In this document: positions 11,757 through 17,966 of the stretch, one piece after another
Numbering within the stretch: position 1 is the stretch's first letter
Layout: each line of letters opens with the position of its first letter
DNA from: an uncultured Bdellovibrionales bacterium
Lineage (GTDB): Bacteria > Bdellovibrionota_C > UBA2361 > SZUA-149 > CAZDIO01
Length of the DNA stretch: 64,000 nt
Direction of reading: 5' to 3'
NCBI GenBank assembly: GCA_964505555.1
Contig: CAZDIO010000117.1
Coordinates: forward strand, 1,044 to 65,043
Position numbers and translations under genes: made by a program
Notes under the pieces: model-generated
What the model was told of the DNA's origin: nothing
What the model saw: only the letters and a program-made list of their open reading frames with translations
Databases searched by the model: none

Positions 11757-14700
11757 TTATGGAGGAGGCACCGTGCAATTCAGATAGGCTCGAAAATTCT
11801 CATTCATTTTTCCAAAGACACTCGGGCCTACCTTTTGATTTAATGATTGCATTGCTTGGCCTCCAACACCAAACCCTATGGTTCTCATGTACAGTACACT
11901 GTCGCGAACGAACAACTTGCGAGCTACAAATCCGGTGTGGAAAATGTGCCAAGGATTTGTGAAGTTATAGATAGTACCGTCAGCACCAAATCTGACGGTA
12001 ACTTCTCCAAAGTGAGGAATAGGAGGGGCATTCTTATATCCAAACCAAAGATTCAACATATTGACGTCATAGATTCCACCGTTTTCAACGGAACTATCAA
12101 CACCCGGCACTTGAAATTGAAGTTGAAGTTGCAAACTTTGTTCAAATGACCAGCCAGATCCAGAAATCACAGCCAATGGATCATTATCCGAGAAAAAATG
12201 TGTTTCTGGATGTTTTTTGTCATTATAAAGATATACAAATGCCCCCCGCATCGCCCCGTCGGCAAACTCACCTTTCCCAAGCACCGATCCAGCTCCACCT
12301 GCAAGTGCAGCGCCGATAAGATTACCTGAAGCTGCCCCGTAGGTACCAAAGCTACCACTAAAGAATCCTGCCCGAAAATCTCCTCCCTCCACTTCAGTAA
12401 GTGCCCCTTGGGTAAACCCGTGCGCAACGGCTCTTACCAAAAGTTGCTGCTCATCAACTACCGAACCCATCATGAAAGTGGCTTGCGCATTTATTGCTGC
12501 CATCGGCATGGAGCTAAATCCTGCTTTTAAACTATCAGCAAAAGATCCTCCATTAACCAGTGTGCCTACAAAGTTTGAGGAGAATGCTGAAATCGCTGCA
12601 TTCAGCATAGAAGAAGAACCTGGCAAGAAGTAATTAGCCACAAGATTGACGACTAGTGGAAGCCATTTCTTAAAGAATTTCTTAAGGCTGAACATCCCCG
12701 TCGGATCAGTAAACGACAGTGGGTTGTTAAGCACATAACTATAGGCATTAAGGCTCTGCGAATTAAACGGGTCTTGTATTACCGGATCAACACTTAAAAA
12801 CCGACCAACCGCCGGATCGTAAACGCGGCCGTTCATATGAATAAGCGCAGCAGCGTCAAGGTGCTCATGCCCCGTAAAGCCTCGAGTGGTTGAACTTAAA
12901 ATTGGCTGCGCGGCTGGTGTCCAGTCACCGTTTCGACGCTTACCCCACGGGTCAAAACTGAGGCGCTCAGTTACTTGTCCAGTAGCGTCCGTAATCGTGG
13001 TAATTGATCCAAGGTGGTCAAGATGAAGAAAGGACAACTTCGGTGGGATTCCCGTTCCTGTTGTGTAAATAGCAACAATTCCATCTGAACCATTTACATA
13101 GTGGACTTCTTCCAAAGCTCCACCGCGCAAAACCTGTTCGTAGATTCCATCGATGTAGACCCTGCGCTCTTCAAGAGCTCCCGAACCTCTATCTTCAATT
13201 CGCTGCTCAAAGCGTTTTCGGTTCGGGTCGTACGCAAAACGGAGAAGTTTTGTCTCCGTAATGATTGCATATGGCAGATTAAATGAGGTGTACTGAAGTG
13301 CTTGATTCAGAGACGCGGTGCGATTTCCTCTCGTATCGTAGCTAAAGGTATTAGGAGTAGCTCCATTAATCGAGGTTAGCGCATGAGGGCCGGCACCGTT
13401 CTCACCATAGAGGTAGGTCCCCACATCGCTACGAGAAGTAATATTTCCAAGTTCGTCATACGTTATGGTAACAGCAGCACTGCCCGAAACGTGCGCCTGT
13501 GTAAGACGGTTTAGACTGTCGTACTGAAAGCTCTCTTCCTTTCCTACAATGTAGTCTTTTCGTTTTAAAAAGTTCCCTAACGCATCAAAGGTGAACTCCA
13601 GATCGTGAATACCAGAGATCGTAATTCGCTTTGGTAAGCCACGCACAACATCGTAGCTATGAGTCGCCCCAAGTCCATTACCAAAACGATCTTTTTCCAG
13701 TTGGTTACGAGCATTTCTCGCTTCTGCCTTCCAGATAAGCAAATTGTCAGCCGCTGTTCGAACTTCGCTAAGGTAGCCCAGCTTATTGTAGAAGTTTCGT
13801 ATGGTCCATCCACTAGGATAGCGAAGCTGCGAGGTTCTTCCAAGCTGATCAAAGGTTTGACGGGTCGTATACGTAGTACGAGAGATAACTTTTTGCGTGG
13901 CTGTAAGTCGCCCAAGAGGGTCATATTCGTATGATTCAACAAAGTTCCCAATGCCACGGACACGAGCAAGCTTTCCAATGCCATATCTTGCTGTGTCATA
14001 CTCCCAAGTTTCCGTACCTTCAGGGGAGGTGCGACTTGCCATACGGTTAAGTGCATCATAGGTGAAGGTAGTTACTGAGCTTCCCGCTTCCTCGCGAGTA
14101 AGTCGCCCACGCGCATCGTAGTCAAAGGTCGTTACCCCAGAGTTAGGATCATCTATCGAGGTGCGATTTCCTCGATCATCAAAGGTCATCAGTGTTACAT
14201 GACCGAGCGAATCGCGGATCTCAGTAAGATTACTGTAACTATCATAGCGATAGGTTGTGGTTTTATTGTTTGCATCTTTTACTGATACAACCTTACCGAG
14301 GCTATTTGTCGTGGTTACCGTTTGCTGATTGAGGGGGTTTGTAACCGTTGTGGTAAAACCAAAATAGGTGGTAGTCGTCACTCGGTTTCCAGGAGCTGTT
14401 ACCCGCGTGATACGACCGAGATTGTCGTATTCAGAAACACTCCACTGCGGTGTTTCGCCTTCAAAGTAAGGTTCTGAGAGATGGGTTAAATTTCCCCGTT
14501 CATCGAAGGCACGGTCAACAAAGATTTTTCGACCATCAAACGAGGTAGCAACTCTTCGAATCTCACGACCAAGTTCATCGAAGTGCTTTATCGTCGGGGG
14601 TTCGCCTGAAACATCGGTTCTTACAAAGTACGCGCTTCCGGGAGGTGATGCACTATCAGCTTTTAGATAAAGCGTGCGGGTTACGGTTTGGTCAGCTCGT

Positions 14701-17700: not shown

Positions 17701-17966
17701 TTAAACGTTCCCTCAATGGTCCCAGCCATTGTGCCACTCACACTGGGAAGAGGTGGCACTATTGGTGGAAGAGAGGAGAGTTTACGTGCTGTTTCTGGAG
17801 TTACTGATTCAGGTCGTGTGGGGGATGTGATTTTATCTTTTGGAGAATTCGGCGGCGGCGGGGCAAACTGAGCTTCTGAGTGATTTAATCCTGCACAAAG
17901 AAGTCCTAAGAGCAAACTAAGGAAGCTTATGTACAGCCGTAATTTCATCTTCATGAAATACCTCAA
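11757..17966 (-). CDS. Secreted polymorphic-toxin-type RHS protein. Domain order is signal peptide, SpvB-like domain, about seven FG-GAP (DWNGDG[RL]TD) repeats, many YD/RHS repeats, RHS core ending in a DPxGL-like motif (DPTGM), then a variable C-terminal domain.
   Basis: The 2069-aa ORF has a signal peptide MKMKLRLYISFLSLLLGLLCAGLNHSEA. The SpvB-like motif ...TVPLSVPPGTAGLIPKLSLSYNSGQGVGLLGPGWEIEG lies at about aa 76-200. FG-GAP repeats lie at about aa 398-740. YD repeats include YDARGRLT, YDPLGRL and YDALGN. The core end reads ...GRVYDPAVGRFLSVDPVIQDP...NPLSFTDPTGM. Confidence 0.9.
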   Translation of the reverse strand: MRYFMKMKLRLYISFLSLLLGLLCAGLNHSEAQFAPPPPNSPKDKITSPTRPESVTPETARKLSSLPPIVPPLPSVSGTMAGTIEGTFKVNDMGSGTYTVPLSVPPGTAGLIPKLSLSYNSGQGVGLLGPGWEIEGLSAISRCPRTFAQDGYIAGITFTTSDALCLNGNRLISVSGAYGENNTHYRTERESFSNIVSLGQSGVGPNSFIVYHKDSLIYEYGNTDDSRLRTSGTAGTLAWKLNKVSDRSGNYLTITYANDPQIGENQPLRIDYTGNSNTGLAPYNSVRFEYETLPASMVRYIAGGAFTNRSHLLKISTFTGESSAWEYRFWYNAPEAIAQERRLAGVKKCTAQGVCLPATSFFWDTNNQDAPLFSAASTTLGDLSPQQGYANSTNSSIIFGDWDGDGRTDIARSLGANTVAYCSTGSGFSLCDSFPPGIEPPTSGYYDYAHSLQTFSGDWNGDGRTDIGRVTLSYGIAFYLSTPGEFQFFGNVPGLGVSNAYTNENRYPIITGDWNGDGRTDFARVGEDVTRFYRSTGTGFVLALTLSDFAPRQGFNISSTNPILTSDFNGDGLTDVGRVAAGGVVVRLSTGTDFGPRIVLPNFGTAQGFTDGNTYPILTGDWNGDGLADIARVRGEVVSFCESTGVGFAPCRELADFSLAQGYSNGNTYPIFTGDFNGDGVGDIARVYSGGVKYYTQKNGVFYGPYLLDNYGASAGYTDGNVHPVIVGDWNGDGFTDIGRISASGVSFQNRTTTKTNLLGNIINGLGHRIQISYAHLSNSSIYTKETGAVYPTVDLKLPVTGVSWVAIWDGLGTQQWTSYHYTGLRAELNGRGFSGVKRVDATDLKTGIKNSTFYRQDYPFQGQPYKTEVRQSNGKLLNIKEDTWAFISSPYGSHFPYISQSVESAYELDESFVKSSSTAFTYDNFGNVVQSVGEFNDGYRETTTNSYSNDETNWLIGKLEETTVTKSAPDAEAITRSASFEYLPDRGLTSKEITEPNDPEDRFEKSYSYDAYGNIVATTVLANGVETLLEEKTYDLRGQFAVTSSNALHHTETRSYDPRYGQVTSIRGPNNLTTTFAFDAFGRLVSETRADQTVTRTLYLKADSASPPGSAYFVRTDVSGEPPTIKHFDELGREIRRVATSFDGRKIFVDRAFDERGNLTHLSEPYFEGETPQWSVSEYDNLGRITRVTAPGNRVTTTTYFGFTTTVTNPLNQQTVTTTNSLGKVVSVKDANNKTTTYRYDSYSNLTEIRDSLGHVTLMTFDDRGNRTSIDDPNSGVTTFDYDARGRLTREEAGSSVTTFTYDALNRMASRTSPEGTETWEYDTARYGIGKLARVRGIGNFVESYEYDPLGRLTATQKVISRTTYTTRQTFDQLGRTSQLRYPSGWTIRNFYNKLGYLSEVRTAADNLLIWKAEARNARNQLEKDRFGNGLGATHSYDVVRGLPKRITISGIHDLEFTFDALGNFLKRKDYIVGKEESFQYDSLNRLTQAHVSGSAAVTITYDELGNITSRSDVGTYLYGENGAGPHALTSINGATPNTFSYDTRGNRTASLNQALQYTSFNLPYAIITETKLLRFAYDPNRKRFEQRIEDRGSGALEERRVYIDGIYEQVLRGGALEEVHYVNGSDGIVAIYTTGTGIPPKLSFLHLDHLGSITTITDATGQVTERLSFDPWGKRRNGDWTPAAQPILSSTTRGFTGHEHLDAAALIHMNGRVYDPAVGRFLSVDPVIQDPFNSQSLNAYSYVLNNPLSFTDPTGMFSLKKFFKKWLPLVVNLVANYFLPGSSSMLNAAISAFSSNFVGTLVNGGSFADSLKAGFSSMPMAAINAQATFMMGSVVDEQQLLVRAVAHGFTQGALTEVEGGDFRAGFFSGSFGTYGAASGNLIGAALAGGAGSVLGKGEFADGAMRGAFVYLYNDKKHPETHFFSDNDPLAVISGSGWSFEQSLQLQLQFQVPGVDSSVENGGIYDVNMLNLWFGYKNAPPIPHFGEVTVRFGADGTIYNFTNPWHIFHTGFVARKLFVRDSVLYMRTIGFGVGGQAMQSLNQKVGPSVFGKMNENFRAYLNCTVPPP
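11760..12692 (-). other. Variable C-terminal (putative toxin) domain of the RHS protein. It covers the last ~311 aa after DPTGM: a Gly/Ala-rich hydrophobic segment followed by an unrecognised globular region.
   Basis: It sits where polymorphic-toxin CT domains sit. It contains GAALAGGAGSVLG glycine-zipper-like stretches and then ...DKKHPETHFFSDNDP...NPWHIFHTGF.... No known toxin motif was recognised by eye. Confidence 0.5.

Follow-up and report, generated by a model that had tools for sequence, protein, structure and literature searches.

The stretch of DNA analysed here, hereafter the window, comprises 64,000 nucleotides of a contig (CAZDIO010000117.1) from an uncultured Bdellovibrionales bacterium. 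Its minus strand carries a single uninterrupted open reading frame (ORF) of 2069 codons (11757..17966) that encodes a giant Rhs polymorphic toxin with a C-terminal tip from an unannotated family (Table 1). To judge by the sequence, an ORF of such length with such domain E-values cannot be a product of chance. The mechanically called ORF opens at a TTG codon (17966). However, because GAGG lies six nucleotides upstream of it, we prefer the ATG at 17954 (MKMKLRL...) as the likely true start, which gives a protein of approximately 2065 aa; the mechanical start therefore carries four extra codons. NCBI holds an identical, unnamed protein (P0001), and the full architecture is common to more than 1300 database proteins. 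A scan of genome contigs with the full toxin protein gave no relative, nor did a metagenome scan with the 312-aa tail.

The initial annotation had described a signal peptide, an SpvB domain, FG-GAP repeats, YD repeats and an RHS core, and all of these were detected, the signal peptide by reading the sequence and the others by profile searches. The N-terminus has basic residues, then a hydrophobic core, then SEA before Q, and a crude hydropathy rule found signal-peptide-like N-termini in 88 of 116 homologues. In the translation of the propeller region the motif GDWNGDGxTD recurs. TcdB_toxin_midC was not reported at E<=0.01 in the Pfam scan of the toxin, while SpvB, FG-GAP and TcdB_toxin_midN matched, and TEN_YD-shell (PF25023) is present in homologues. 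The core closes with DPTGM at residues 1754-1758, with 311 residues C-terminal of the motif, as had been annotated. The toxin has the exact architecture that defines the TcdB/TcaC class of Zhang, de Souza, Anantharaman, Iyer and Aravind 2012 (Biol Direct 7:18), namely signal peptide, SpvB, integrin-like beta-propeller and RHS, together with hypervariable C-terminal tips. In contrast to that class, its own tip lies outside the annotated toxin families tested, it has no adjacent immunity gene, and its Rhs core and tip are separated by a DUF637/PT637 module; Zhang 2012 puts PT637 under the CdiA toxins of the type V secretion system (T5SS). The scaffold is of a known class, so the gene itself is unsurprising. 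We regard it as a genuine, intact member of that class whose tip comes from an unannotated family with an unusual predicted fold.

Table 1. Coordinates of the toxin gene, its domains and its downstream flank in the window.
Feature	Position	Strand	Residues	Basis
Whole gene, TcdB/TcaC-class Rhs polymorphic toxin, 2065 aa	11757..17954	-		Profile searches
Predicted Sec signal peptide (MKMKLRLYISFLSLLLGLLCAGLNHSEA, then Q)	17871..17954	-		Judged from sequence alone
SpvB domain	17178..17687	-	94-263	Pfam PF03534, E 4.9e-10
FG-GAP/VCBS integrin-like beta-propeller repeats	15867..16784	-	~395-700	FG-GAP_3, E 4.1e-18 (3 stretches); FG-GAP, E 2.4e-4
TcdB_toxin_midN	15390..15788	-	727-859	Pfam PF12256, E 1.1e-12
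YD/RHS repeat shell	12954..14969	-	~1000-1671	RHS_repeat, E 4.6e-46; YD_repeat, E 2.3e-33; RHS_core, partial match
Rhs-associated core, ending P1749-x4-D1754-x2-G1757, then M1758	12693..12953	-	1672-1758	TIGR03696, E 6.8e-21
Pre-toxin module, 158 aa, Gly/Ala/Ser-rich, DUF637/PT637-like, ending in GEFADGAMRGAFVYLYND	12219..12692	-	1759-1916	Predicted 7-helix bundle
Variable toxin tip, 153 aa, predicted SRPBCC/START helix-grip fold	11760..12218	-	1917-2069	Unannotated family
Intergenic gap, 149 bp, no immunity-type ORF; weak terminator-like hairpin at 11684-11696 (-)	11608..11756			
MarR/GbsR-CudC-like regulator, soluble	11053..11607	-		MarR_2, E 8.8e-7; CudC, E 6.3e-9; maximum hydropathy 0.83

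The tail behind the Rhs core consists of two parts, a conserved pre-toxin module and a variable tip. When the tails of 110 homologues were clustered by BLAST, the last 150 aa fell into 76 clusters, 63 of them singletons, whereas the segment preceding them formed one cluster of 104. Identity to the window toxin follows the same division. The nearest relative by shell, P0002, is 59.9% identical over the shell and 47.3% over the pre-toxin module and has an unrelated tip, as do P0003, P0005 and P0007 (shell 43-46%, pre-toxin 30-37%); in P0004, P0013, P0108 and P0116 the tip is related as well (shell 34-43%, pre-toxin 29-40%, tip 29-37%). Given that the tips are hypervariable, that the pre-toxin segment forms a single cluster and that identity changes by segment, the cassettes are exchanged after the module and not at DPxG. 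The C-terminal region is thus polymorphic and not invariant among homologues, as a polymorphic toxin requires; on these comparisons, however, the swap boundary is about 158 aa beyond the DPxGL junction at which the initial annotation had proposed to look for it. The end of the module is marked by a conserved motif, G(G)KF-x-x-GA-x3-AF-x3-(F/Y)N, represented here by the sequence given in Table 1. The tail is 250-420 aa long in nearly all 110 homologues and mostly 300-350 aa, though the tips are unrelated. Tox-REase-9 and Peptidase_M15 are among the other tips on the same shell family, eight of ten sampled homologue tips have no Pfam match, and many tips contain HExxH motifs. Most of the 76 tip clusters are without annotation and represent a reservoir of unknown toxins.

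The pre-toxin module is modelled as helical, with seven predicted helices, and is placed directly before the variable tip. It matches DUF637 (PF04830) at 28.6-30.6 bits when the tail is scanned alone (gathering threshold 26.6) and at 24.8 bits in the whole protein, the match spanning only profile positions 84-165 of 168; DUF637 was matched in 16 of 27 homologous modules. The module family is 43% Gly+Ala+Ser and rich in small-xxx-small motifs, and the best matches to its predicted fold are Tim22, Tim17 and OEP16. The suggestion that the Gly-rich stretch is membrane-inserting or a glycine zipper therefore holds in part. It is favoured by the family, in which 20 of 27 members have a hydrophobic segment of transmembrane (TM) grade, usually right after a basic FxxKKFFKK stretch, and by the predicted Tim22/Tim17/OEP16 folds. 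It is weaker for the window protein itself, in whose Gly-rich stretch a classical TM helix was rejected at a maximum 19-aa hydropathy of 1.14-1.25. The arrangement recalls the pre-toxin region of CdiA, as DUF637/PT637 is a small helical domain ahead of the pre-toxin motif in many CdiA proteins (Mercy 2016; Zhang 2012). In both cases a small helical DUF637 module is followed by a short conserved motif that opens the variable toxin, and GAFVYLYND of the window toxin stands in the role of the CdiA VENN motif. Unlike in CdiA, the module lies inside Rhs cargo and not in a filamentous T5SS protein, only the part of the profile given above is matched, and there is no PT-VENN match. A conserved, membrane-protein-like pre-toxin module across so large a family (>1300 homologues) is a candidate for the element by which Rhs cargo crosses a target membrane.

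The tip had been described as a region without recognisable motif, and this stands at the level of sequence. Neither the tip nor its 24 aligned relatives gave a sequence match in Pfam, NCBIfam or PDB sequences, a curated SRPBCC family included; none of the 25 members matched a Pfam toxin family, even at E<=1; and tblastn of the tip against plasmids found no match. In contrast, the predicted fold is recognisable as an SRPBCC/START helix-grip, in which an antiparallel sheet surrounds a long C-terminal helix. An exhaustive search of 1.84 billion representatives returned 29 matches to the tip (E 1e-7 to 1e-3), of which P0124 and P0128 were rejected as repeat-protein artefacts, the others being distant relatives. 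Four full-length homologues (P0004, P0013, P0108 and P0116) carry the tip as well. When the 151-aa tip was used as query in a word-index protein search, nothing was returned, not even the identical protein P0001, which the full-length query then recovered; this false negative means that the nulls of that method with short divergent queries are unreliable and are no evidence of uniqueness.

Throughout the tip alignment H1923, P1954, N2001, T2003, H2007, G2012, G2031, G2033 and N2043 are invariant and R2016 is near-invariant. A cysteine pair kept in most members is absent from the window tip. The invariant N-x-T resembles a glycosylation sequon. Some copies of the tip follow an Rhs core, either directly or behind a pre-toxin module; others stand in orphan cassettes or have unrelated N-termini, signal peptides among them, in front of them. 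On these settings we judge that the tip behaves as a mobile toxin cassette. Two of its relatives, P0134 and P0136, stand alone as secreted proteins whose N-terminal domains are Cys-rich. On Cystatin-fold lipoprotein toxins of Bacteroidota, a START-like helix-grip domain has been listed as the toxin tip, with a predicted lipid target (Burroughs 2025, eLife RP108061). The two cases share a helix-grip START-like domain at the toxin-tip position, a predicted lipid target and an exported partner, an immunity protein in Bacteroidota and a candidate one beside other copies of the tip studied here; the carrier in Bacteroidota is, however, a Cystatin-fold lipoprotein and not Rhs, and the families were compared by description only. 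The window tip defines an unannotated toxin-cassette family with a predicted START/helix-grip fold, a fold almost unknown among polymorphic toxins apart from one sentence in that 2025 paper.

The absence of an adjacent immunity gene, noted in the initial annotation, was confirmed. The only ORF in the gap downstream of the toxin is a 33-codon TTG ORF that overlaps the toxin stop codon, and it is not a credible gene; the next gene encodes the MarR/GbsR regulator, followed by DUF2071 and then an NDH-2-like oxidoreductase. Neighbours were compared across 12 copies of the tip (three on L004, and one each on L089, L090, L091, L086, L005, L087, the window, L001 and L002), and in nine of the 12 an exported or multi-pass membrane protein is encoded directly downstream. 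Six copies on four contigs (L004 three times, L089, L090 and L091) share one downstream family (HMM E 1e-41 to 1e-112), whose proteins, approximately 150 aa long, combine a 110-aa domain with a signal anchor or lipobox-like signal at the N-terminus; in L090 an insertion sequence (IS) element separates the tip gene from this partner. In L086 (~11415-11730) and L005 (~6670-6985) an ORF of approximately 100 aa, missed by the source annotation, lies directly after the toxin stop; the two products have two to four TM-grade hydrophobic segments and are 49% identical to each other (E 1e-23). In L087 two multi-TM ORFs follow the tip gene.

The remaining three copies, those of the window, L001 (P0004) and L002 (P0013), are mutually the closest tips, and none has an adjacent gene for an exported or membrane protein; the gene that follows in L001 and L002 runs convergently and has a soluble product. 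No homologue of the three candidate immunity families (L004-type, L086/L005-type and L087-type) was found in the 64-kb window. The MarR/GbsR regulator, DUF2071 and the convergent gene of L002 were considered as hidden immunity genes and rejected, as their products are soluble, carry ordinary annotations and are not conserved beside the tip. Elsewhere in the shell family, a Tox-REase-9-tipped homologue has a DUF4304 gene downstream that overlaps the toxin gene by 4 bp; the family therefore includes classical toxin-immunity pairs, and immunity genes are detectable when present. The same tip with and without immunity genes offers a natural comparison on when a polymorphic toxin can do without immunity.

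Orphan C-terminal cassettes with candidate immunity partners, which the initial annotation had proposed to look for in related genomes, do occur. Positions 1-10708 of L004 are densely packed with orphan Rhs C-terminal fragments, and behind every fragment comes a small gene. The START-like tip is found on three of these fragments; others have HExxH-like or unassigned tips, each with a different small exported partner. In L086 (1-11405) the toxin gene P0116 lies directly downstream of genes for PilN, a GspM-like protein, a secretin (GspD N0/Secretin) and a PKD-domain protein, a gene order which hints that a secretin of the type II secretion system (T2SS) may export this class of toxin.

Taking these observations together, we lean, with somewhat better than even confidence, towards a Sec-exported Rhs toxin resembling a TcB-TcC fusion, without an adjacent immunity gene, whose pre-toxin module and START-fold tip act at the envelope of a target bacterium. 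As in the homologous TcC and Rhs proteins, the YD shell, capped by the SpvB/propeller half, would enclose the last 311 residues, and the aspartyl autoprotease of the Rhs core would cut this cargo free after G1757 (PxxxxDxxG followed by M). The pre-toxin module could then act as a delivery module that inserts into the target membrane, and the tip would work from the periplasmic side of the target cell, on a membrane lipid or a lipid-linked carrier that it binds or modifies chemically. Because all candidate immunity proteins are exported or membrane-embedded, and because the predicted fold is one that holds hydrophobic ligands, we would place the target in the envelope and probably among its lipids. 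Exported or membrane-embedded immunity is typical of colicin M and the pore-forming colicins, not of nucleases. Furthermore, the two invariant His, two invariant Asn and invariant Thr of the tip, together with its near-invariant Arg, suggest catalysis rather than passive binding. The neighbours of the tip thus point to a lipid or envelope target, and hence there may be a new killing mechanism. As for the absent immunity gene, the most likely explanations are that the toxin would stay caged until delivery and be used on non-self, prey or competitors, by a likely predatory lineage, or that the producer lacks the target or shields it.

We also considered a bolder, two-stage form of this proposal, which we think unlikely. 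Such a device would be without precedent among described Rhs toxins. Here the PT637 module would be a self-inserting, Tim17/22-like glycine-zipper half-channel that brings any tip attached to it through the membrane of the target, the START-fold tip would kill by pulling out or cleaving a lipid carrier essential to the envelope (undecaprenyl phosphate, lipid II or a quinone, for example), and predatory Bdellovibrionota would use the toxin on prey and need no immunity.

Several points weigh against our preferred reading of an envelope-acting antibacterial toxin. Activity, cleavage and export are all things that we infer, and the helix-grip fold of the tip is a prediction. The window protein's own pre-toxin module has no TM-grade segment, unlike most homologues. 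That the downstream membrane proteins of other tip copies are immunity proteins is likewise something that we infer, from position and co-occurrence only. Beyond the Sec step, no TcA-like gene, type VI secretion system (T6SS) cluster or T2SS cluster within 64 kb offers a route over the outer membrane of the producer and into the target. Moreover, the evidence spans 64 kb of the genome, and the rest may encode an immunity gene or a TcA partner. Finally, the tip may be the Ntox43 family of Zhang, a predicted RNase.

The initial annotation had left three alternatives, a non-kin or eukaryotic target, immunity encoded elsewhere, or a non-toxin function of the C-terminal region, and these can now be narrowed, though all three keep some weight. 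A serious minority possibility is that the gene encodes an ordinary antibacterial Rhs toxin whose cognate immunity gene lies elsewhere in the genome, outside the 64 kb that our evidence spans. The tip already has three candidate immunity families, so a fourth, unrecognised one is possible, and rearrangement evidently occurs, given that an IS200-like gene flanks the toxin and that in L090 an IS splits a toxin from its immunity gene. However, the closest relatives of the tip, L001 and L002, independently have no adjacent immunity gene, which looks more like a trait of the lineage than a local chance event, and the window contains no homologue of the candidate families. We find it rather unlikely that the tip is Ntox43, the clade of the Pseudomonas aeruginosa RhsT C-terminal domain, and that it acts as a two-histidine, RNase-A-like nuclease on eukaryotic cells, hence needing no immunity gene. 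RNase activity is reported for some proteins of the PR-10/Bet v 1 type. Ntox43 was described as alpha+beta with two conserved histidines, in RHS toxins of the T2SS and TcdB/TcaC classes, never beside an immunity gene, and in gamma- and delta-proteobacteria among others (Zhang 2012). The window tip fits that published description, being alpha+beta with two invariant histidines, a TcdB/TcaC-class carrier and no immunity gene, though the comparison is by description only. Yet Ntox43 is a predicted RNase aimed at eukaryotes, whereas the window tip family often has membrane-protein neighbours: exported or membrane proteins after nine of 12 tip copies fit an envelope target and not a cytoplasmic nuclease. 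Nor did any of the 25 tip members match a Pfam toxin at E<=1, and the shell family includes clearly antibacterial-type tips such as Peptidase_M15. If the tip family were Ntox43, its name would date from 2012, and the fold and membrane-protein neighbours would argue against the RNase prediction.

The likeness of the scaffold to Tc toxins raises the possibility, to us quite improbable, that the protein serves as BC component in a true Tc (ABC) toxin whose TcA, encoded elsewhere in the genome, injects the cargo into eukaryotes such as protists, and that the lack of immunity is simply the norm for Tc toxins. Ankyrin-Ser/Thr kinase fusions are often linked to interaction with eukaryotes, and one is encoded in the window. 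SpvB, the beta-propeller and TcdB_toxin_midN, all of them TcB domains, lie in the N-terminal half, which together with the YD shell and the PxxxxDxxG core resembles the TcB-TcC cocoon of Photorhabdus TcdB2-TccC3 and of natural B-C fusion genes. PxxxxDxxG is the TcC autocleavage motif, the TcC hypervariable region measures 201-400 aa, and none of the Tc loci examined has an immunity gene (Song 2021); the window toxin, with a tail of approximately 300 aa and no immunity gene, agrees on these points. On the other hand, it has a signal peptide, there is no TcA-like gene within 64 kb, and TcdB_toxin_midC was not reported at the threshold given above. Sister proteins on the same shell have antibacterial-type tips and immunity-like genes: one has a nuclease tip and a downstream gene that overlaps its own, another a tip that is a peptidoglycan peptidase. 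In addition, candidate immunity genes accompany the same START-like tip in bacteria. Very doubtful, in our view, is a non-toxic tip, secreted to carry or scavenge a hydrophobic molecule (a lipid, quinone or signal), with the downstream membrane proteins as its receptors or importers. Most characterised SRPBCC/START proteins do bind or transport hydrophobic ligands, earlier toxin claims for the START proteins PasT and Rv0910 have since been disputed or revised, and the window has no immunity gene. However, the tip sits where a polymorphic-toxin scaffold has its hypervariable toxin, the orphan Rhs C-terminal arrays, in which each tip copy has its own small downstream gene, bear the signature of toxin-immunity cassettes, and a START-like domain has been listed independently as a toxin tip (Burroughs 2025).

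Beyond the toxin, the remainder of the window is ordinary chromosome, with genes for citrate synthase, electron transfer flavoprotein, the diaminopimelate pathway, HslUV-like proteins and GlnA. GlnA has its best matches, at 75-77% identity, among proteins of Bdellovibrionota/Bdellovibrionales metagenome-assembled genomes, and one toxin-shell homologue is labelled Oligoflexia; judged by this single marker gene, the host probably belongs to the Bdellovibrionota. A recent horizontal insertion of the toxin gene was rejected on base composition, as its guanine plus cytosine (GC) content equals that of its surroundings. An Rfam search of the window gave no match. The largest other ORF encodes a 1244-aa PKD/Ig protein.

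Ahead of the toxin gene lies a 590-bp, AT-rich leader (17967-18555, GC 0.376). A tandem 14-nt repeat, GTAATGTCTACCAG / GTAATACTTACCAG, occupies 17968-17995, directly before the toxin start codon, and CTAGTATTCACT occurs in two exact copies (18258-18269 and 18302-18313); these leader repeats may be operator sites. The gene just upstream of the toxin, 18556-19539 (-), has a product of 327 aa in which part of an IS200-like Y1 transposase domain was recognised (E 3.4e-7); this protein may be a RAYT-like or domesticated transposase. The ankyrin-Ser/Thr kinase fusion is a 723-aa protein encoded at 26811-28982 (+), in which a eukaryote-type Ser/Thr kinase domain is joined to an ankyrin repeat block. 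A further cluster, at 43728-48803, encodes a VanX-like D-Ala-D-Ala dipeptidase (43728-44375), a methyltransferase, a double AsnC-type helix-turn-helix (HTH) regulator (45179-46207) and an 806-aa protein with two D-Ala-D-Ala ligase units (46383-48803). A double-HTH regulator of the same architecture as that of the cluster adjoins the homologous toxin gene in L001.

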